This document shows positions 5,818 to 16,581 of a stretch of DNA of 32,000 nucleotides, one piece after another. The stretch's first letter is position 1; the number at the start of each line of letters is the position of its first letter. The DNA is from Microcystis aeruginosa NIES-843. GTDB taxonomy: Bacteria > Cyanobacteriota > Cyanobacteriia > Cyanobacteriales > Microcystaceae. The notes under the pieces are model-generated. The model worked only from the letters and a program-made list of their open reading frames with translations. It searched no databases and was not told where the DNA came from. The translations under genes and the position numbers were made by a program. The DNA lies in the NCBI RefSeq assembly GCF_000010625.1, contig NC_010296.1, positions 4,230,001-4,262,000 on the forward strand, given 5' to 3'.

Positions 5818-6129
5818 ATGGCTGCAGTCAGCATCAACGTAACTACTGTTAAACCCCTAGGCGATCGAGTTTTCGTCAAAGTTAGTCCCAGCGAAGAAAA
5901 AACCGCCGGTGGTATTTTCCTTCCCGACGCCGCTAAAGAAAAACCCCAAATCGGGGAAGTCGTGGCCGTCGGCCCCGGCAAACGCAACGATGACGGTAGC
6001 CGTACCCCCGTAGAAGTGGGTGTGGGTGACAAAGTTCTCTACTCCAAATATGCCGGAACCGATATCAAACTTGGTGGCGAAGAATTCGTTCTCCTCTCCG
6101 AAAAAGACATTCTCGCCGCCGTTTCCTAA
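5818..6129 (+). CDS. groES: Co-chaperonin GroES
   Basis: 103 aa from [22 protein letters not shown]..., with GGAGG at 5806-5810. The track ORF start at 5764 is an upstream in-frame extension. Confidence 0.95.
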
Positions 6130-6166
6130 TCATCTACCCTTGAAAACCCCTATTTTGCCCGAATAA

Positions 6167-7801
<1,635 letters not shown>

Positions 7802-7822
7802 TAATTAGTCTGTTTTTTCTTG

Positions 7823-7855
7823 ACTCGATCGCTTAATTGCGATCGAGTTTTTTTT
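7823..7855 (+). terminator. Rho-independent terminator of groESL
   Basis: ACTCGATCGC-TTAATT-GCGATCGAGT is a perfect 10-bp stem followed by a T8 run, 22 bp after the groEL stop. Confidence 0.8.
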
Positions 7856-7997
7856 GATGAAAAAACATCACTTCGGGTTAAGGAAAGTACAATTTTATCC
7901 CCGACGCTTTTTCCTTGCGGTAAAATATTGATGGCTCGATCGGGTATCCCGATTTACAGCCCGCCATGCGGAACAAATCTGGATTGTTAAGTAGGTA

Positions 7998-9679
7998 GGG
8001 TTTGCTGAATAAATCTAAAAACCTTACAGGAAAGGGCTTTTAGCTTGATTGAGAGCTTCCCAAATGCACTTAAATCTGCTAGAATCTCTTAAAACCCTTG
8101 CATCACCCTTGCATCTTCTCTAATTAGTGCTAATGTACCGTAAAAGCGAGTTACCCTCAACCCCACCAGAAAACTTCGAGCTGCCCTTTGAGGGGAAATT
8201 ATCCCAAGATAATCGTTGGGTAATTATGGCCAACCTCATTCCCTGGTCAGAATTTGAAGCGGAATACGCATCACTTTTTTCAGAAGAAATGGGCGCACCC
8301 GCCAAAACATTTAGGACAGCACTAGGAGCATTAATTATTAAAGAAAAATTAGGAACAAGCGATAGAGAAACGGTAGAACAAATCAAGGAAAATCCTTATT
8401 TACAATACTTCTTGGGGTTTTCAGCCTACAGCAATGAACCCCAGTTTGAAGCGTCAATGTTGGTTCACTTTCGAGAAAGAATCACTCGGGAACTAATTAA
8501 TAAAGTGAATCGCTTTATGGTCAAAAATTCGAGAGAAATAAAAGAAGAAGAAAACACCGAAAAAAAGTTAGAGAGCGAAACCCAAAGTCAACCAGAAAAT
8601 CGAGGTAAATTAATTTTAGATGCCAGTTGTGCGCCCGCAGATATTAGTTATCCTACGGATTTAAACCTGTTAAATCAAGGAAGAAAACAAACCGAAAAAA
8701 TTATTGATATTCTCTATGAAACTATAAAAGGAAAACTTGTTCAAAAACCGAGAACCTATCGTCTCCTGGCCAGAAAAAGTTATTTAGAAGTAGCAAAAAA
8801 AAGAAAACCTACCGTCAAACAAAGACGAAAAGCTCTAAAAAGACAACTGCAATATCTGAAAAGAAATCTCGACCATATTGAACAACTTTTAGCAGAAGGA
8901 GCCTCTCTACAAAGCTTGAAAAAAAGAGACTATAAACTGTTATTAGTAGTCACAGAAGTTTATCGCCAACAACTCTGGATGTACCAAAATAACAAACAGA
9001 GTATTGAAGACAGAATTGTCAGCTTAACTCAACCCCACATCCGTCCGATAGTCAGAGGAAAAGCTGGAAAACCCGTAGAATTTGGGGCCAAATTCTCAGC
9101 AAGCTGTATAGATGGTTACATATTTTTAGACCGGATTAGTTGGGATAACTTTAATGAATCGGGAGATTTAAAAGCACAAATAGAAGCTTATTATGACTAT
9201 ACAGGATACTATCCAGAATCAGTTCATGTGGACAAAATTTATCGAACCAGAGAAAACCGAGCTTGGTGTAAAGAAAGGGGAATCAGAATCAGTGGTCCCC
9301 CATTAGGAAGACCAGCCAAAAATGTTAGTAAAGAACAAAAGAAACAAGCTACTGATGATGAGAGGATTCGGAATTGTATAGAGGGCAAATTTGGACAAGG
9401 GAAAAGAAGATTTAGCTTAGGTAAAGTGATGGCTAAACTTCCTCATACTTCCTTTTCAGCGATTGCTATTACTTTTTTAGTCATGAATCTTTCTAACCTG
9501 TTGAGGCAGGTTTTTTGGGCTTTTTTATGTCTGAAATGGAAAAACAGCACTTTTTCTCGGTCAATGATTAGGATAAGTTATAATTTAAAAATTAATCAAC
9601 AACTAAAGCTTATGCTTGTAGCTAAGTGAAATCATTGATTAAGAGACCTGTACTTTTCAATGACTTTTTCAGCAAACCC
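7998..9679 (+). mobile_element. IS element (1682 bp), IS5-superfamily / IS1182-like, autonomous parent of the family-A MITEs
   Basis: 12-bp perfect TIRs GGGTTTGCTGAA / TTCAGCAAACCC. The 6-bp TSD TAGGTA lies at 7992-7997 and 9680-9685. There is a single transposase ORF. Confidence 0.9.
8127..9629 (+). CDS. DDE transposase (DUF772/InsH-type N-terminal domain)
   Basis: 500 aa. FRTALGALIIKEKLGTSDRETVEQIKENPYLQYFLGF is the InsH-N/DUF772 pattern. A C-terminal R-x3-E-x6-K motif (RNCIEGKFGQGK) is typical of IS4/IS5 DDE enzymes. Confidence 0.88.
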   Translation: MLMYRKSELPSTPPENFELPFEGKLSQDNRWVIMANLIPWSEFEAEYASLFSEEMGAPAKTFRTALGALIIKEKLGTSDRETVEQIKENPYLQYFLGFSAYSNEPQFEASMLVHFRERITRELINKVNRFMVKNSREIKEEENTEKKLESETQSQPENRGKLILDASCAPADISYPTDLNLLNQGRKQTEKIIDILYETIKGKLVQKPRTYRLLARKSYLEVAKKRKPTVKQRRKALKRQLQYLKRNLDHIEQLLAEGASLQSLKKRDYKLLLVVTEVYRQQLWMYQNNKQSIEDRIVSLTQPHIRPIVRGKAGKPVEFGAKFSASCIDGYIFLDRISWDNFNESGDLKAQIEAYYDYTGYYPESVHVDKIYRTRENRAWCKERGIRISGPPLGRPAKNVSKEQKKQATDDERIRNCIEGKFGQGKRRFSLGKVMAKLPHTSFSAIAITFLVMNLSNLLRQVFWAFLCLKWKNSTFSRSMIRISYNLKINQQLKLMLVAK

Positions 9680-9920
9680 TAGGTAGGCGTTAAAAGTTGT
9701 CAGACACCCCCCTTATCAAGGGGGGCAGGGGGGATCCCCCCGCCTATCGGCACCCCCCTTATTAAGGGGGGATTAAGGGGGGATCCCCCCGCCTATCGGC
9801 ACCCCCCTTATCAAGGAGGGCAGGGGGGATCCCCCCGCCTATCGGCACCCCCCTTATCAAGGGGGGCAGGGGGGATCGAACCTAAAATCCATTTTTAATT
9901 TAATTATAACCAGCTACTTA
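9680..9920. mobile_element. Family-B MITE copy B1 (its left tip is at 7989-7997, split off by the IS), with an internal tandem expansion
   Basis: It shares AGTAGGTAGGCGTTAAAA...GGGGGGATCGAACCTAAAATCCATTTTTAATTTAATTATAACCAGCTACTT with the copies at 21403-21526 and 23049-23149. About 3.7 tandem units of 46-49 bp (9705-9875) each contain the hairpin CCCCCCTTATCAAGGGGGG. Confidence 0.85.
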
Positions 9921-9932
9921 ACTTATACCACG

Positions 9933-11846
9933 ATGTCGAAAAAAGCGAAAGGATTCGGTCAGTCGCCAACTCCCACGAGAAAATTTAAGGATTTTCTCCT
10001 TGCTTTTGGGGATTTTTATCGAAAAAATTCCAGAGATGAAACGAAGCTACAGCAATTTTTAAAAGCAAATATTAATAAATTAGATGATTTACTTTTAGAC
10101 GCTTTACCTTTAGTCTTCACAAGCTTAATCGCCGATAAATCAATAAACGAGCGAGAAATAATAGCCAGCCTTTTCGAGAATTTTGCTGTCACCATTTACA
10201 AGTTTCCGTTAGGCGATCGAGCAACAAATTTAGAATTAAGTATTACTGCTCATAATCTCAGCCTAAAAATTTACACCCGCGAAGATTCCCCCGAAGATTG
10301 GGCGGGAACCCTGAATAACCTCGCTGTCGCTTGCAAAAACAGAATACTGGGCGACAGGGCTGAGAATCTAGAAAGGGCGATCGAACTGTACGGGCAAGCT
10401 TTAGAAGTTAGAACCCGCAAGAATTTCCCTGAAAATTGGGCAGCAACCCTCAATAACCTCGCTATCGCTTACAGTAATCGAATTCGGGGCGATCGGGCTG
10501 ATAATCTGGAGAAAGCGATCGAACTGTACGAGCAAGCTTTAGAAGTTAGAACCCGCAAAAATTTCCCCGTAGATTGGGCGGGAACCCTCAATAACCTCGC
10601 TCTCGCTTACAGCGATCGAATTCGGGGTGATCGGGCTGATAATCTGGAGAAAGCGATCGAACTGTACGGGCAAGCTTTAGAAATCTATACCCGCAAGAAT
10701 TTCCCCGTCGATTTGGCAAGAATCCTCAATAACCTTGCCCTCGCTTACAGTAATCGAATACTGGGCGATCGAGCGGAAAATCTGGAGAAAGCGATCGAAC
10801 TGTACGGGCAAGCTTTAGAAATCTATACCCGCAAGAATTTCCCCGTCGATTTGGCAAGAATCCTCAATAACCTTGCCCTCGCTTACAGTAATCGAATACT
10901 GGGCGATCGGGCGGAAAATCTAGAGAAAGCGATCGAACTGTACGGGCAAGCGTTAGAAGTCTATACCCGCGAGAATTTCCCCGAAAATTGGGCGATAAGT
11001 CAGCATAATTTGGCCAATGCCTATCGCGAGCGAGTTTTAGGAGAGCGGAAGGACAATTTAGAACGGGCGATCGATCTCTACAATCAAGCCGCTCAAATCT
11101 TTACTCGCGCCGCGTTTCCCGTGCAATGGGCGGGGAATCAAGGGGATTTGGCAGAAGCTTTGATGCAACGGGATAACCCCGGCGATCTCGATACTGCGAT
11201 CGCTCTACTTCAAGAAGCTCTAGAAGTCTCCCCCGCAGGTTGTCAAGATTTTATTGACTCTCAATACCGATTAGGAATAGCTCTTTCTCAAAGGTACGAT
11301 CGCGACAAAAATTTCGACGATCTCCGACAGGCTTTAGAAGCTTATAAAACCGCCCTAGATCTGATTAGTCCCGAACATTACGATCGAAAAGATATCTGGA
11401 AGGCGCTGCCCACTACCCAAACCATTCTCGGTAGTCGTCTGGTGCGGGATGGCGAATGGCAGCAAGGGTTACAACTGTTGTTAAATAGCGTCAATCAACT
11501 TAGCACCAGTGACGATCGCCTAGCCCATGCGAACGCGCTCTACCACACCGGCCGCGCCTACGAAGTTCTGTCCGATCGAGAGAAAGCCCGTCTCTACTAT
11601 CGCGATGCCCTGCGTTGGTACGAATATTTACAGGATTTACCCGGAATCGCTAAAAGTCGCACCGGATTGGGGAATGTTTTCGTATCCCAAGGACATCTAG
11701 AGAAAGGAATGAAGGAACTCGATCGAGCGAAGGCAATCTACCGACAACTACCACAGACCGATCCCGATAAAGTGGAGGAGATAGACATTATTTATCAAGC
11801 TTCTCGACGGGCGATCGAACGACAAACCAGCGAGGTATATATATGA
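9933..11846 (+). CDS. TPR-array protein (46-aa repeats of the type found N-terminal to CHAT domains, but with no CHAT or other effector domain)
   Basis: 637 aa. At least 6 tandem 46-aa units (FPxxWAxTLNNLAxAYxxRIxGDRAxNLEKAIELYxQALEVxTR) span 10293-11120, followed by further degenerate TPRs to the C-terminus. The stop overlaps the next gene's start (ATGA). Confidence 0.85.
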   Translation: MSKKAKGFGQSPTPTRKFKDFLLAFGDFYRKNSRDETKLQQFLKANINKLDDLLLDALPLVFTSLIADKSINEREIIASLFENFAVTIYKFPLGDRATNLELSITAHNLSLKIYTREDSPEDWAGTLNNLAVACKNRILGDRAENLERAIELYGQALEVRTRKNFPENWAATLNNLAIAYSNRIRGDRADNLEKAIELYEQALEVRTRKNFPVDWAGTLNNLALAYSDRIRGDRADNLEKAIELYGQALEIYTRKNFPVDLARILNNLALAYSNRILGDRAENLEKAIELYGQALEIYTRKNFPVDLARILNNLALAYSNRILGDRAENLEKAIELYGQALEVYTRENFPENWAISQHNLANAYRERVLGERKDNLERAIDLYNQAAQIFTRAAFPVQWAGNQGDLAEALMQRDNPGDLDTAIALLQEALEVSPAGCQDFIDSQYRLGIALSQRYDRDKNFDDLRQALEAYKTALDLISPEHYDRKDIWKALPTTQTILGSRLVRDGEWQQGLQLLLNSVNQLSTSDDRLAHANALYHTGRAYEVLSDREKARLYYRDALRWYEYLQDLPGIAKSRTGLGNVFVSQGHLEKGMKELDRAKAIYRQLPQTDPDKVEEIDIIYQASRRAIERQTSEVYI

Positions 11847-13084
11847 CAAGTGCCGATGATCTTTTTAAGCAATCCTCTGACAATATCCAACGGTTAGGAC
11901 TGAAGGAAATCCCCTTTACCGAAAGCCCGATCGATTTAAACAGCGATACCCTCGATCGTGTTTTTACCGGGCGACAAAATGAATTGCGACGGGTGTTTAA
12001 TCTGTTCCAAAGTCGCGAGCGTCGTCGGATTCTGGTTTCCGGTCGTTTAGGAATCGGCAAAAGTGCTTTTTTACTGGAAGTATTGTCGGTTATGCGCCGC
12101 AATCGTCCGCAAATGTTGACTACCTATATATCTCTACCCGCAGGTTTAGATATCGCCACTACAGCACTGATCGCCCTCGCTAGAGCGATGCCAAATGACG
12201 ATTGGGCGCAGCGTCAGCTTTATCAGATGGGAATTCCCACCGCCAAAGTGTTAAAAGAACGCGGGGCGGAAGTGGGGGCTAATGCAATCCTTACGGGTAA
12301 ACTTACCGAGAAAGATTTACCGCCCACGAAATTTCAATATCCGACTGTGAGCTTCGATACATTGTTAGAGCGGGCGCAAAAAATATATCCGCAGGGGATT
12401 CTGATCGCGATCGATGATCTAGATAAACAAAATCCTAGTGTGGTACGGCAAATGATGCACGACGCGCAGGGAATGTTAAAAGGTCGGGCTTGGTTTATGC
12501 TGACGGCCCACCCCATCGGGATGACGGGAGATTTATTAACCAGTGAACGCGGTTTATTTGACTTGCATTTGCCACTAGAAGAACTAGATGCCGATACCAC
12601 ATACCAGATGTTAATTAACTATCTCAAAAGTGCCAGAATTAACAACGATTGTACCGATCCGAAAGATGACAGGTGTGTACTTCCCTTTTTACCAGATGCG
12701 GCAAGACGTTTTTGCAAGGTTTCTCTCGGCAGACCCCGTTTGTTCAACCGCTTGGGAAATATTGTACTCTCCACCGCGGCCGATCTTCAGGTTAAAACGA
12801 TCACGATGGAAGTTCTCGAAAAAGGATTAAAAGCAGCCGAACAGGATTTCCGACAACAAGCGGCCTTAAACGCCAAAGAGGAAAGAATTCGTCTGCTTTT
12901 GCAACGCAAAGGTAATATCTCCGACGATTCGATCACCATCGATGAGCTTGAAAGTTTAGGTTTTCGGGCATTTAGTGATATTTTGCCCTTTCTAGAAAGA
13001 TTGGAAGAAGCTGATCTAGCTCAAAGGTTAAATCAAGAGGATGTGACGGTTTTCGAGCCGATCCTTCTCCCTCCGGCGGATTGA
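11843..13084 (+). CDS. P-loop NTPase, STAND/ORC-Cdc6-like (AAA_16/Arch_ATPase-like)
   Basis: 413 aa. FTGRQNEL precedes Walker A GRLGIGKS (12041-12064). Walker B is ILIAIDDLD (~12398-12424). The helical C-terminal third is plausibly a winged helix. There is a 4-bp ATGA overlap with the TPR gene. Confidence 0.75.
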   Translation: MTSADDLFKQSSDNIQRLGLKEIPFTESPIDLNSDTLDRVFTGRQNELRRVFNLFQSRERRRILVSGRLGIGKSAFLLEVLSVMRRNRPQMLTTYISLPAGLDIATTALIALARAMPNDDWAQRQLYQMGIPTAKVLKERGAEVGANAILTGKLTEKDLPPTKFQYPTVSFDTLLERAQKIYPQGILIAIDDLDKQNPSVVRQMMHDAQGMLKGRAWFMLTAHPIGMTGDLLTSERGLFDLHLPLEELDADTTYQMLINYLKSARINNDCTDPKDDRCVLPFLPDAARRFCKVSLGRPRLFNRLGNIVLSTAADLQVKTITMEVLEKGLKAAEQDFRQQAALNAKEERIRLLLQRKGNISDDSITIDELESLGFRAFSDILPFLERLEEADLAQRLNQEDVTVFEPILLPPAD

Positions 13085-13138: not shown

Positions 13139-13435
13139 TTAAGGATTTGGGATCGATCGCACCAGCAGAGTCAGAATACTGGTTAATACTGCCACTACCA
13201 CGGGAATAATCAACGATTTTGCTCCCTTAAGGTCCGATACATCCTGAATTAAAGCGTCCTGTGTTCCCTCTACTTTTTCCAATCGCCTATCAATACTTTT
13301 GAGTTCGGTTTTCACCTCGGCCATATCTACTTTTAGATCGGTGACATCTTTCTGTAAAGAGTCTAATTTTTCCGTGATATTTGTCAGGATAATTTCTAGG
13401 GAATTGGTGACGGGGGATTGACTCATCTGAATTTC
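13139..13435 (-). CDS. Tail-anchored coiled-coil mini-protein (paralog 1)
   Basis: 95 aa from MSQSPVTNSLEII..., with heptad-like coiled coil (LDSLQKDVTDLKVDMAEVKTELKSIDRRLEKVEG). The C-terminal TM segment is SLIIPVVVAVLTSILTLLV. It is a paralog of 14538-14831, sharing the DxSDLKGAKSLIIPV block. The track ORF extends to a TTG at 13537. Confidence 0.65.
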   Translation of the reverse strand, partial: EIQMSQSPVTNSLEIILTNITEKLDSLQKDVTDLKVDMAEVKTELKSIDRRLEKVEGTQDALIQDVSDLKGAKSLIIPVVVAVLTSILTLLVRSIPNP

Positions 13436-13533
13436 GGGGAATATTCGATCGCCTAGTAATATTGTAGGCTGATAATCGTTATTGGTAATTCTGTGATCTT
13501 TCGGGAGTGACGGAATTACAGCGATCGCATTGA

Positions 13534-13740
13534 TCAAATATCTTCTTCAGAAAGTCCCGCTTGTTTCAAAAAATGCTTGAGTAATCCGATTTTTAAATCC
13601 TGATTTCCGTGAATCGGCACAGAGATACGGGTGGGATTATCCGGCTGACAGTAAATGTGATGGCTACCTTGAATTCTCAATAATTCCCATCCGTGACGCT
13701 CTAAAATTTTGGCGAACTTTTTCCCAGAAATCGATTTCAT
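13534..13740 (-). CDS. hicA: HicA mRNA-interferase toxin
   Basis: 68 aa from MKSISGKKFAKILERHGWELLRIQGSHHIY...VPIHGNQDLKIGLLKHFLKQAGL, the classic HicA pattern. There is an ATGA overlap with hicB. Confidence 0.9.
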   Translation of the reverse strand: MKSISGKKFAKILERHGWELLRIQGSHHIYCQPDNPTRISVPIHGNQDLKIGLLKHFLKQAGLSEEDI

Positions 13741-13940
13741 ATCGCTATCTCTAGAATCCGAGTTTTCGGATCGGTCGGCAAGGATTCCACATCTATGGAT
13801 AGACAACCTTCGATCGCCTCGTGTAAATTCTCTAGTAGTTCCTCGAAAGTTTCTGCTTGGGTGGCACAGCCGGGGAGCGCCGGGACTTCCCCCCAGAAGC
13901 CACCTTCCTCCGCCTCGTGAACGATAACTTTCATTTTCAT
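13737..13940 (-). CDS. hicB: HicB-family antitoxin (UPF0150)
   Basis: 67 aa. The pattern VIVHEAEEGGFWGEVPALPGCATQAETFEELLENLHEAIEGCL is typical of short HicB proteins. Confidence 0.88.
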   Translation of the reverse strand: MKMKVIVHEAEEGGFWGEVPALPGCATQAETFEELLENLHEAIEGCLSIDVESLPTDPKTRILEIAI

Positions 13941-14057: not shown

Positions 14058-14291
14058 CTAAATATTGTAGGCTGTTTTTGTAGGTGATGCAATCCTTACC
14101 AACTGACGACATTCTGTTTTAATGGCTTGTTGTAGTTCTTGTGCCTCTGAATCGCTTAAAATGCCTGAAAAATTGGCCAGAGGATGACTGTTGCCTGTTG
14201 CCTGAACTCGATGTAAAAAATCTAATACGGTTTCTATTAGATCATCAGGTGCTTGTTCGAGTTCTTGAATTAATTGTTGACGATGGTTCAT
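14058..14291 (-). CDS. Orphan DUF2281-like antitoxin (no cognate toxin)
   Basis: The N-terminus QQLIQELEQAPDDLIETVLDFLHRVQA resembles antitoxins normally paired with PIN/VapC toxins. Only 117 bp separate it from hicB, so no toxin ORF fits. The 3' end contains the recombination-prone motif AATATTGTAGGCTG, also present at 13457-13470 and 14431-14444. Confidence 0.6.
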   Translation of the reverse strand: MNHRQQLIQELEQAPDDLIETVLDFLHRVQATGNSHPLANFSGILSDSEAQELQQAIKTECRQLVRIASPTKTAYNI

Positions 14292-14537: not shown

Positions 14538-14831
14538 ATGAGTCAATCGGGAGAAACCGTCACCTATTCCCTAGAAGCCATCCTGACGCGGATCGAGGGA
14601 AAGATCGATCGAATCGATGATCGCCTGACAAAACTAGAGGTAGGACAGGCAAAATTAATCGAGAAAGTCGAGGGAATGGATAAGCGGTTAGAAAGGCTAG
14701 AAAACGAACAATCGGGGCTAGTTAAGGATATATCCGATTTAAAAGGGGCGAAATCGCTGATTATCCCCGTAACCGTCGCGATTATTACCGCCATACTCAC
14801 GGTTTTCCTTCGCTCTTTACCCTCTCCCTAG
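14538..14831 (+). CDS. Tail-anchored coiled-coil mini-protein (paralog 2)
   Basis: 97 aa: MSQSGETVTYSLEAILTRIEGKIDRIDDRLTKLEVGQAKLIEKVEGMDKRLERLENEQSGLVKDISDLKGAKSLIIPVTVAIITAILTVFL. Same architecture and C-terminal block as 13139-13435. Confidence 0.7.
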   Translation: MSQSGETVTYSLEAILTRIEGKIDRIDDRLTKLEVGQAKLIEKVEGMDKRLERLENEQSGLVKDISDLKGAKSLIIPVTVAIITAILTVFLRSLPSP

Positions 14832-15303: not shown

Positions 15304-16581
15304 ATGAAAATTATCGCCTACACCTATACCAATCCCCTGCTTGATAGTCCCCCCGATGCCTCGATTTCGACCTATTCTCCCGAACAAGTGTATCAGGATT
15401 TTGGCGATCGCTCACAACGGCAGCAACTGCTCCGCGATTGTCAAGGAACTCCCCCCCGACTGCTGATCCTGCGTCGTCTAGCAGAATTGGGAGACAATGG
15501 CACAGAAGTTAGCAAAATTTTACAATCCTTAGAAGCCCTCGACATAGATATAATTGCCCTAGAAGACCCAGATTATAAGCTGAATTTTGCCAAGATTCTG
15601 CAAGAAATATCAAAAAACGAACTAAGTAACCGTTTAAAAGCAGGTCACGCTCACAATCGTCTGCAAGCTTTGCCTCCCCCCGGAAAAGCACCCTACGGTT
15701 ATCGTCGTGGCAAGGAGCGTTATATACTCGATCGCAGTACCGCGCCGGTAGTCAAAGACTTTTTTGATCGCTTTTTGATTTCTGCTTCCCTGCGTTCCAC
15801 GGTGCGCTATATAGAAAAACGCTATGGTAAGAAGATATCGGTAGCTACTGCCCATAAATGGCTGACTAATCCCGTTTATCGCGGCGATTTGTGCTATCTC
15901 GGTCAATATATTATCCCCGATACCCACACCCCGATTATCTCCCGGGAAGAAGCGGCCCAGATCGATCGCATCCTGAGAAATAATCGCAAATTACCCCCCC
16001 GCAGTGCCAGCGCCCCGCGTTCCTTAGCGGGTTTAGTCGTCTGTAGTCAATGTCAATCGGGGATGACGATTACCAAAGTGACGGCGCGAGGAAAGGGCCT
16101 AGAATACCTCTATTTGCGACCTTTGCAATGTCCCCGGACAAAAAAATGTTCGGCGATCGCTTATGAGAAAATTCTCGATAGCACAATCGAGCGCATTTGT
16201 CAAGACCTACCACCGACGATCGCTCAGATATCTTTACCGGATTTAGAGGGGATCAAACGGGGAATGAGCGAGGAAATAGGGCAAAAAAACGATATTTTGT
16301 CCCAATTGCCCTCCCTAGAAGCGGCGGGAATTTTAGATCAAGAAACGGCTAATCTACGGGCCTATAAACTGAAAAACGAGATCGCGCAGATTCAAGGACG
16401 TTTAGACCAATTACCCCCGGATAACCTGACTATTATCGCTCGTGCCGTTGCTTTTCCGCAATTTTGGCGAGATTTATCGGAAATCGAGCGCCGTTTTTAT
16501 TTTCGCGAGTTTATCCGTCGCATCGAAATCGAGAGAGAAACGGCTAACAATTGGCATTTACGTTTAATCTTCGTTTTTTAA
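15304..16581 (+). CDS. Large-serine-recombinase homologue with non-canonical (probably inactive) catalytic domain
   Basis: 425 aa. The recombinase domain (PPGKAPYGYRRGKERYILD...WLTNPVYRGD), a Cys-rich zinc-ribbon-like segment (CSQCQSG...CPRTKKC) and a coiled coil are all present. The N-terminus reads MKIIAYTYTNPLL where Y-x-R-V-S-T is expected, and RRLAELGDN sits where LDRLGR is expected. Confidence 0.75.
   Translation: MKIIAYTYTNPLLDSPPDASISTYSPEQVYQDFGDRSQRQQLLRDCQGTPPRLLILRRLAELGDNGTEVSKILQSLEALDIDIIALEDPDYKLNFAKILQEISKNELSNRLKAGHAHNRLQALPPPGKAPYGYRRGKERYILDRSTAPVVKDFFDRFLISASLRSTVRYIEKRYGKKISVATAHKWLTNPVYRGDLCYLGQYIIPDTHTPIISREEAAQIDRILRNNRKLPPRSASAPRSLAGLVVCSQCQSGMTITKVTARGKGLEYLYLRPLQCPRTKKCSAIAYEKILDSTIERICQDLPPTIAQISLPDLEGIKRGMSEEIGQKNDILSQLPSLEAAGILDQETANLRAYKLKNEIAQIQGRLDQLPPDNLTIIARAVAFPQFWRDLSEIERRFYFREFIRRIEIERETANNWHLRLIFVF

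Follow-up and report, generated by a model that had tools for sequence, protein, structure and literature searches.

A conserved, translationally coupled pair of genes for a TPR protein and a STAND/Orc-like AAA+ ATPase in Microcystis aeruginosa NIES-843: a candidate split sensor switch

In the immunity of bacteria, plants and animals, pattern recognition relies centrally on switches of the STAND (signal transduction ATPases with numerous domains) and NLR (nucleotide-binding leucine-rich repeat receptor) kind, which normally are single polypeptides in which sensor, switch and effector are fused. The STAND NTPases are close relatives of the Orc/Cdc6 clade, and their hallmarks, reportedly set out by Leipe and colleagues in 2004, are a GRExE motif, a Walker B motif of the DD form, a GxP motif and a winged helix that follows. 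Among cyanobacterial proteins built of tetratricopeptide repeats (TPRs), All4981 of Anabaena sp. PCC 7120, a filament-forming protein of about 650 aa, polymerises and is co-transcribed and interacts with the adjacent All4982, which is encoded upstream of the TPR gene (PMC7002697). Here we describe, in a 32,000-nt stretch of the genome of Microcystis aeruginosa NIES-843 (hereinafter the window; contig NC_010296.1, positions 4,230,001 to 4,262,000), two overlapping genes that encode a TPR protein and an ATPase of the STAND/Orc-like kind.

Comparative analysis shows that the two genes are a conserved, co-evolving, translationally coupled and self-contained unit, and we consider it reasonably probable that the pair as a whole is a split, effector-less sensor switch akin to NLR and STAND proteins. 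A preliminary description of the window, made from the letters and translations alone, had read two open reading frames (ORFs) of 637 and 413 aa joined by an ATGA overlap, with the motifs FTGRQNEL, GRLGIGKS and ILIAIDDLD in the second; all of these are found where it had placed them. The ATPase is labelled 'hypothetical protein' or, by UniProt, 'Orc1-like AAA ATPase domain-containing protein', and the accessions BAG04432 and BAG04433 are not mentioned in the literature searched. The features of the pair, with the basis of each assignment, are as follows.

9933..11846, + strand: TPR partner gene, 637 aa (BAG04432.1 / B0JUI4, annotated 'TPR repeat')
11843..13084, + strand: AAA+ ATPase gene, STAND/Orc1-Cdc6-like, 413 aa (BAG04433.1 / B0JUI5)
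11843..11846, + strand: ATGA stop/start overlap of 4 nt, translational coupling (ORFs)
9933..10217, + strand: N-terminal leader of the TPR protein, aa 1-95, four predicted helices (alignment, AlphaFold2)
10275..11240, + strand: seven 46-aa TPR-type repeats, aa 115-436 (Tandem Repeats Finder, protein repeat register)
11241..11843, + strand: conserved C-terminal TPR-like domain, aa 437-637 (homology among loci)
11894..11917, + strand: LGLKEIPF, N-terminal motif of the ATPase (family alignment)
11963..11986, + strand: FTGRQNEL, hhGRExE-type motif upstream of the P-loop, aa 41-48 (family alignment)
12041..12064, + strand: Walker A GRLGIGKS, aa 67-74, with K73 (family alignment)
12398..12424, + strand: Walker B ILIAIDDLD, aa 186-194, with D191 and D192 (family alignment)
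12728..12739, + strand: lid GRPR motif, GxP plus the sensor-2-like arginine R299 (family alignment)
12869..13081, + strand: C-terminal winged-helix domain of the ATPase, aa 343-413 (AlphaFold2 model)

The pairing was surveyed at 147 loci from genomes and metagenomes, 132 of which have at least 400 nt of DNA upstream of the ATPase gene. At 130 of these 132, spanning 43-99 % identity of the ATPase, a TPR gene lies directly upstream, and the C-terminal ~200 aa of its product are homologous to the C-terminal domain of the NIES-843 protein; the ATGA overlap is retained in 106 of 128 homologous pairs. Moreover, the identity of the TPR C-terminal domain tracks that of the ATPase (r = 0.96 over 111 distinct pairs), the former falling from 98 to 28 % and the latter from 99 to 43 %. 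The variable part of the TPR partner is the N-terminal one, with lengths of about 180 to 1000 aa, and the 46-aa repeat type was not detected in the partners of several loci of the more divergent clade 2 (see below). The ATPase has several hundred homologues, and the full-length members are all free-standing proteins of ~405-435 aa. The proposal that the two genes form a module conserved beyond this strain is thereby borne out, and the pair is not a broken single gene, the separate lengths being kept in hundreds of genomes (~410-430 aa for the ATPase). Only one full-length locus with ample upstream DNA, from Adonisia turfae (ATPase at 6001-7239 of locus L056), lacks a detectable TPR partner; the upstream ORF there encodes an unrelated 104-aa protein and ends 338 nt before the ATPase gene. 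A 275-aa protein at a metagenome contig end (P0220) joins a TPR C-terminal domain in frame to ATPase residues 1-52; as a single case that may be either a natural fusion or a sequencing frameshift, it was not used as evidence.

On a global scale the ATPase family is small: 167 representatives were found at E <= 1e-3 among 1.84 billion sequences. Proteins 65-94 % identical to the NIES-843 ATPase occur in Phormidesmis, Stenomitos, Nodosilinea, Coleofasciculus, Spirulina, Pseudanabaena, Acaryochloris, Snowella, Cyanosarcina and others, and a second clade, at 43-50 % identity, comprises sequences from Moorena, Okeania, Crocosphaera, Gomphosphaeria, Chloroflexota and an 'Omnitrophica' metagenome-assembled genome. 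The distribution is patchy, with no Nostocales, Synechocystis or picocyanobacteria among the matches that bear an organism name.

The catalytic motifs of the ATPase are intact. In the family alignment G67, G70, G72 and K73 of Walker A are invariant, as is D191 of the Walker B motif, which has the form hhhhDD with D192 nearly invariant; upstream of the P-loop, R44 of FTGRQNEL is invariant and F41 and E47 nearly so. In the lid, G296, P298 and R299, which are nearly invariant in one alignment and invariant in another, belong to a G296-R-P298-R299 motif that sits at the start of the lid helix 298-314 in the AlphaFold2 model, and a sensor-1-like F.LTG is likewise conserved family-wide. Where an arginine finger would be expected, before beta-5, the close clades have R236, and several family members have Leu instead. 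P24 and F25 of the N-terminal motif (W)GL..(I/N)PF are also invariant, and we infer that this motif is a candidate contact with the TPR partner. The Pfam model AAA_16 scores 30.9 bits on the ATPase, just under the gathering score of 32.6, and ATPase_2 matches weakly, while precomputed matches to both PF13191 and PF01637 are present in many orthologues.

The AlphaFold2 model of the ATPase (39-sequence multiple alignment; predicted local distance difference test score, pLDDT, 83.4; predicted template modelling score, pTM, 0.81) begins with an N-terminal helix, which is followed by an AAA+ alpha/beta core, into which a beta-hairpin of low confidence is inserted at aa 138-158, then by a helical lid and a C-terminal winged helix of three helices and a beta-hairpin. 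What the preliminary description had called a helical C-terminal domain is, according to the model and to Foldseek, the AAA+ lid and then the winged helix, so that the region stands with a different content. The assignment of the ATPase as STAND/Orc-like holds in both motifs and fold, and no housekeeping family claims it: Pfam, NCBIfam and PDB sequence searches return weak generic P-loop matches only.

Against the PDB, the best Foldseek match for the whole chain is the archaeal Orc1/Cdc6 protein 2qby_A (E = 1.7e-11), with 2v1u_A, 1fnn_A and 1w5t_A among the other top matches, over about 420 aligned columns; ORC/Cdc6 subunits, RuvB and the archaeal AAA+ protein SSO1545 come next, and ZAR1 and NRC3, two plant NLRs, are also matched in their NB-ARC modules (6j5t, 9ria). 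These matches, the leading ones of which are structures of Orc1/Cdc6 bound to origin DNA, together with the UniProt label, could be taken to mean that the ATPase binds DNA as an initiator or regulator in transcription, replication or segregation and has a cofactor in the TPR protein. We hold this to be very improbable. The TM-scores are only about 0.45-0.5, and the similarity to Orc1/Cdc6 in PDB sequence searches reaches only E ~ 1e-5, in the P-loop region. The winged helix of Orc1/Cdc6 is basic and contacts DNA, whereas that of the ATPase (aa 343-413) is acidic, with an isoelectric point (pI) of 4.3 and a net charge of -8, and the same domain has a pI of 4.1-5.3 in 23 of 25 diverse family members and of 6.9 at most; this acidity argues against an Orc1-like DNA-binding role. 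Furthermore, the DD Walker B and the GxP in the lid are of the STAND type, the relatives of the ATPase carry immune effectors rather than replication partners (see below), and a family missing from most cyanobacteria cannot be a general initiator. Three outcomes had been set beforehand as speaking against the module, namely a housekeeping match of the ATPase, loss of the pairing outside the strain and a broken single gene, and none of them was found.

The TPR partner is recognised by Pfam as TPR_12 (1.8e-35), TPR_10 (5.4e-24) and TPR-S (55 bits at a cutoff of 27.6), and its orthologues are 58-59 % identical to it over their whole length. It had been thought to consist almost entirely of 46-aa repeats; the repeats exist (Tandem Repeats Finder detects a 138-nt, i.e. 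46-aa, period at 10275-10993 with 5.2 copies and 89 % matches), but the array makes up only about half of the protein, which consists of a helical leader (~95-114 aa), the array and then a ~200-aa TPR-like C-terminal domain that is distinct from the repeats, strongly conserved and endowed with core motifs of its own. The basic leader (pI 9.3) has a KGFGQ motif conserved at its N-terminus, is 31-50 % identical among clade-1 orthologues and has its modelled helices within residues 14-90. The single-sequence AlphaFold2 model is an all-helical solenoid (pLDDT 78.8), and fold searches return only generic TPR superhelices, with likeness to peptide-binding ones such as LGN/Pins, OGT/SPY and KLC1. The repeat array is probably a ligand-binding surface for a protein or peptide, and the C-terminal domain, on the strength of its co-variation with the ATPase, is our proposed docking domain for the latter.

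As the preliminary description had stated, the repeat type (FP..WA.T.NNL..AY...) is that of CHAT-TPR proteins: the array is 42-57 % identical to annotated CHAT-domain proteins on cyanobacterial and other plasmids. The leader, which was supposed to be held in common with the same proteins, gave no tblastn match in plasmids for aa 1-95, and that part of the comparison is withdrawn. On a mobilisable plasmid of Pseudanabaena sp. ABRG5-3 (L151, 43-9059), three genes in a row on one strand, each with the annotation of a CHAT-domain (TPR) protein, are built from the same 46-aa repeat type and form a tandem cluster of paralogues.

Neither the TPR protein nor the ATPase has a recognisable effector domain by Pfam and PADLOC, and in particular neither matches PF12770 (CHAT), in line with the initial reading. 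Distant relatives of the ATPase (22-32 % identity, E values of 1e-6 to 1e-15), by contrast, have the whole NTPase module in common with it, from the N-terminal motif to the winged-helix region, and then run on at the C-terminus into a CHAT, an Mrr-type nuclease or a TIR domain. These NTPase-Mrr/TIR/CHAT proteins, ~510-720 aa long, come from myxobacteria and metagenomes and give weak matches to nSTAND1, nSTAND3, nSTAND5 and nSTAND6; PADLOC matches only their effector halves, the NTPase module being without a PADLOC v2 model. The effector-less forms of ~410-430 aa are nevertheless the majority of the ATPase family, down to 22-30 % identity.

The Mrr-fused family numbers about 56 proteins of ~560 aa, Archangium included. 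At all three of its loci that were inspected (L148-L150, gene at 6001-7680 in each), the gene is preceded by a TPR gene with a 4-nt overlap; the upstream products are 174, 258 and 1354 aa long, of which the second was missed by the annotator and the longest (L150) is a PNP_UDP-AAA_16-TPR protein and itself a full STAND protein. In an hhalign comparison the C-termini of these partners match the cyanobacterial TPR C-terminal domain with 95 % probability (E = 2e-8, 176 columns), a score to be read with the caveat that one of the profiles consists of three sequences and that TPR-like composition can inflate it. The layout of a TPR partner and an overlapping NTPase, with and without effectors, is thus older than the cyanobacterial clade. 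Since relatives with the same layout carry Mrr, TIR or CHAT domains in addition, we place the module in a radiation of conflict-type sensors, and the recurrence of the same TPR partner beside the effector-bearing relatives provides a basis in homology for an ancestry among conflict systems. The Mrr-, TIR- and CHAT-fused sister families, which the PADLOC v2 models do not contain, may plausibly be defence systems that have escaped cataloguing.

Within Microcystis the array is variable. The TPR alleles of 591, 637, 683 and 729 aa differ by exact 46-aa steps, and among 54 distinct repeat units from Microcystis alleles the scaffold positions are fixed while variability is concentrated at position 46 and, along one face of the first helix, at positions 8, 11, 12, 18, 21 and 22, in an analysis that pools paralogous repeats and is descriptive, with no formal selection test. 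The ratio of nonsynonymous to synonymous substitution rates (dN/dS, omega) is about 0.35 for the ATPase and for the TPR C-terminal domain alike, about 7-fold above that of the adjacent groEL (0.046) at similar dS; the pair is under net purifying selection and far less constrained than groEL. Microcystis also has a second, paralogous TPR and ATPase pair, with 45 % ATPase identity (e.g., CCH94510.1). On metagenome contigs (L125-L127, L142-L144) the TPR partners of this second pair are 503-1000 aa long, with the same ATGA overlap. In a neighbor-joining tree without support values, the second Microcystis ATPase groups with that of Crocosphaera, as the species tree predicts, and the NIES-843 ATPase (11843..13084) falls among Leptolyngbya-type sequences, apart from Snowella, which suggests horizontal acquisition or old paralogy.

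The same data bear on the notion that the pair is a decaying, functionless remnant of a TPR and NTPase-effector defence system that has lost its effector. The existence of effector-fused relatives and an omega raised relative to groEL speak for such decay; yet both ORFs are intact at more than 130 loci, with invariant catalytic motifs and the ATGA overlap kept, omega lies well below 1, and effector-less forms prevail in the family. We find this explanation barely credible.

With respect to additional components, the search for a conserved third gene or effector ended in rejection: clustering of 811 flanking ORFs revealed no third gene linked to the pair across lineages. The recurrent families are groES/groEL in Microcystis and an alpha/beta-hydrolase in some Leptolyngbya-type genomes, both instances of lineage-specific synteny, and otherwise housekeeping genes (LeuRS, UvrA, ArgG, ABC ATPases). 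A catalogued defence system was also considered and is ruled out: PADLOC v2 gave nothing for the ATPase and a 19-bit generic TPR match for its partner, and the PHROGs search returned no match.

Four other Microcystis genomes and many metagenome contigs from blooms have the TPR gene immediately behind groES-groEL. Downstream of groEL lies a strong terminator (7822-7849), and the TPR-ATPase pair is therefore its own transcription unit. In NIES-843, positions 7991-9917, between this terminator and the TPR gene, are occupied by a strain-specific insertion missing in those four genomes. It contains an insertion sequence (IS) that has terminal inverted repeats of 35 nt at its two ends (7996-8030 and 9647-9681) and encodes, at 8127-9629, a transposase with the domains DDE_Tnp_1_2 and DUF772. 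Beside the IS end, still within the insertion, an array of G/C-run palindromes at 9707-9886 comprises about four units of ~48 nt, each with two perfect or near-perfect palindromes, CCCCCCTTATCAAGGGGGG and GGGGGGATCCCCCC, and the spacer 'gcctatcggca'; it looks like a hairpin-repeat element or one resembling a miniature inverted-repeat transposable element. The preliminary description had taken the IS and its surroundings as signs of an island of conflict systems; with the IS being a strain-specific insertion and the flanks elsewhere housekeeping, this argument falls.

Downstream of the ATPase, two small proteins, encoded at 13139-13537 (- strand) and 14538-14831 (+ strand), are paralogues (52 % identical, E = 2e-32), each with a coiled coil, a C-terminal transmembrane helix and weak XhlA/ssr2422-like similarity; in inverted orientation, their genes flank hicAB-like genes (13534-13940) and an antitoxin-like ORF (14058-14291). 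The convergent, tail-anchored product of 13139-13537 had been offered as a conceivable effector, which would make the whole a mobile-island defence system. Its coiled coil, membrane helix and weak resemblance to XhlA-type holins or haemolysins would suit that role, and 12 Microcystis loci have it downstream of the ATPase, with hicAB-like genes and an IS nearby. Among about 130 loci, however, only one outside Microcystis has it, so that the linkage is essentially confined to this genus; no membrane protein stands beside the pair in other lineages, the IS is strain-specific, and the paralogue lies 1 kb away, by toxin-antitoxin genes. We regard such a system as extremely improbable; because the paralogue is on the other side of the hicAB-like cassette, the protein more plausibly belongs to that cassette. 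Further downstream, 15304-16581 (+ strand) encodes a 425-aa protein resembling serine recombinases. It has Recombinase and zinc-ribbon domains, but the resolvase catalytic domain at its N-terminus is matched only weakly and in part (E = 2.8e-4), and it is possibly a large serine recombinase that has degenerated or diverged.

Taken together, the observations on the pair can be accommodated in the following model of a split sensor switch. The TPR protein and the ATPase would form a complex, as gene structure and co-evolution suggest, in which the TPR C-terminal domain docks on the ATPase, possibly via the (W)GL..IPF motif. The array would bind a ligand, probably a protein or peptide, and the ATPase, predicted to be a complete module of the nucleotide-oligomerisation-domain (NOD) type with an AAA+ base, a lid, a winged helix and intact motifs, would by analogy with STAND proteins then be freed for nucleotide exchange and oligomerisation. 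Given the lack of an effector domain in either protein and the acidic winged helix, it is improbable that the output is DNA binding or that the pair itself carries out an enzymatic attack; more likely it would recruit or sequester other proteins.

Several observations weigh against this model. The ATPase is 65-78 % identical across cyanobacterial orders, which is high for an immune gene. It has no match on 72,556 plasmids or in 50,697 phage genomes, and its three matches in IMG/VR cover only the P-loop, none of them being a copy of the module. Housekeeping genes make up most of the flanks in other genera, without consistent defence enrichment, and the expected enrichment beside known defence genes is not seen: among 143 flanking ORFs from 36 non-redundant loci, PADLOC gave mostly generic ATPase cross-matches, with clear defence genes occurring singly (one Wadjet JetC and a few PIN toxins). 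The absence of a PADLOC v2 call for the ATPase points the same way, the TPR-ATPase complex is one that we infer from gene structure and co-evolution, and the qualifications attached above to the hhalign score and to the repeat-variability analysis lessen the weight of both. Finally, we know of no established route of signalling for an effector-less STAND-like pair.

An alternative is that the pair is a repurposed, non-immune module, for instance an ATP-controlled TPR scaffold for complex assembly or cell architecture comparable to All4981, an explanation that has the TPR-ATPase complex at its core in common with the split switch and differs only in the role assigned to it. We consider it possible, if on balance unlikely. 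Besides the high identity across orders, it accords with the position adjoining groESL in all Microcystis strains examined, the housekeeping neighbours, the lack of an effector and the lack of mobile-element copies; moreover, the Anabaena TPR protein of similar size that polymerises and interacts with its operon partner offers a parallel (PMC7002697). According to a 2026 survey of STAND proteins, clades without a defence role lie scattered among the defence clades and switches of function are many (PMC13581612), so that immune and repurposed outcomes both have precedent. A non-immune cellular role sits less well with the patchy distribution, the placement of the NIES-843 copy off the species tree (in the tree without support values), the omega about 7-fold above that of groEL, the array with its copy-number polymorphism and variable surface positions, and the immune-type effectors of the relatives, and the gene order at All4981 differs. 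Within the split-switch model, then, we cannot tell a still immune role from a repurposed one: the former is favoured by the effector-bearing relatives, the variable array, the two paralogues, the patchy and partly incongruent distribution and the raised omega, and the latter by the conservation across orders, the housekeeping contexts, the lack of copies on mobile elements and the missing effector.

In a more far-reaching version of the immune alternative, colonial and filamentous bacteria would possess a distributed immune network with the pair as its sensor half and with executioners encoded elsewhere. The TPR array would recognise an invader or damage signal and the oligomerised ATPase would activate the executioners, for which the CHAT-TPR proteases with the same 46-aa repeat would be candidates; the arrangement would resemble the sensor/helper NLR networks of plants, with the paralogous pairs and the variable array reflecting receptor diversification. 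We regard this extension as quite doubtful.

If the split-switch model is correct, the module would be a naturally split NLR, in which the TPR sensor and the nucleotide switch are separate, stoichiometrically co-translated and without an effector. It is conserved in bloom-forming Microcystis, many filamentous cyanobacteria and Chloroflexota, and could offer a simple genetic system for studying how a TPR sensor and a NOD communicate in trans and how a switch without an effector signals. In Microcystis, furthermore, the two variable receptor-like loci may bear on interactions between phage and host or between strains in blooms.

In comparison with known systems, both components are of known kinds: the ATPase is a STAND/Orc-like AAA+ protein, and the TPR sensor has repeats of the CHAT-TPR type. 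The architecture, with sensor and switch as separate, co-translated polypeptides, in reversed order, strictly paired and without an effector, we have not found described: a keyword search of Kaur et al. 2020 and Lee et al. 2026 yielded no description of a split TPR and NTPase pair, an absence that is not proof of novelty. The CHAT-TPR proteins have the same 46-aa repeat type, whereas the protein studied here has no CHAT domain, a leader of its own and an ATPase-linked C-terminal domain. The likeness to All4981, by description only, lies in a cyanobacterial TPR protein of about 650 aa with an operon partner, and the difference in the position of that partner, upstream in the case of All4982 and downstream in the case of the NIES-843 ATPase. 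Archaeal Orc1/Cdc6 proteins agree with the ATPase in fold over the AAA+ base, lid and winged helix, and differ in that the latter has an acidic winged helix, a DD Walker B and an obligate TPR partner. The Mrr/TIR/CHAT-fused relatives have the NTPase module with (W)GL..NPF and the winged helix, as well as an overlapping upstream TPR partner, in common with the pair; they differ in carrying an effector and in having partners that are either short (174-258 aa) or full STAND proteins (1354 aa). With the STAND/NLR proteins, including bacterial Avs, archaeal PH0952 and MalT, the ATPase has in common the GRExE-type motif, Walker A, the DD Walker B, GxP and the winged helix, along with structural matches to the NB-ARC of plant NLRs and, as judged from the TPR-S match of its partner, a TPR array as the likely sensor. 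The pair departs from them in the absence of an effector and of a PADLOC model, in an AAA_16 score below the Pfam cutoff and in its organisation: the ATPase carries no repeats, and the sensor is a separate polypeptide encoded upstream, in reversed order.

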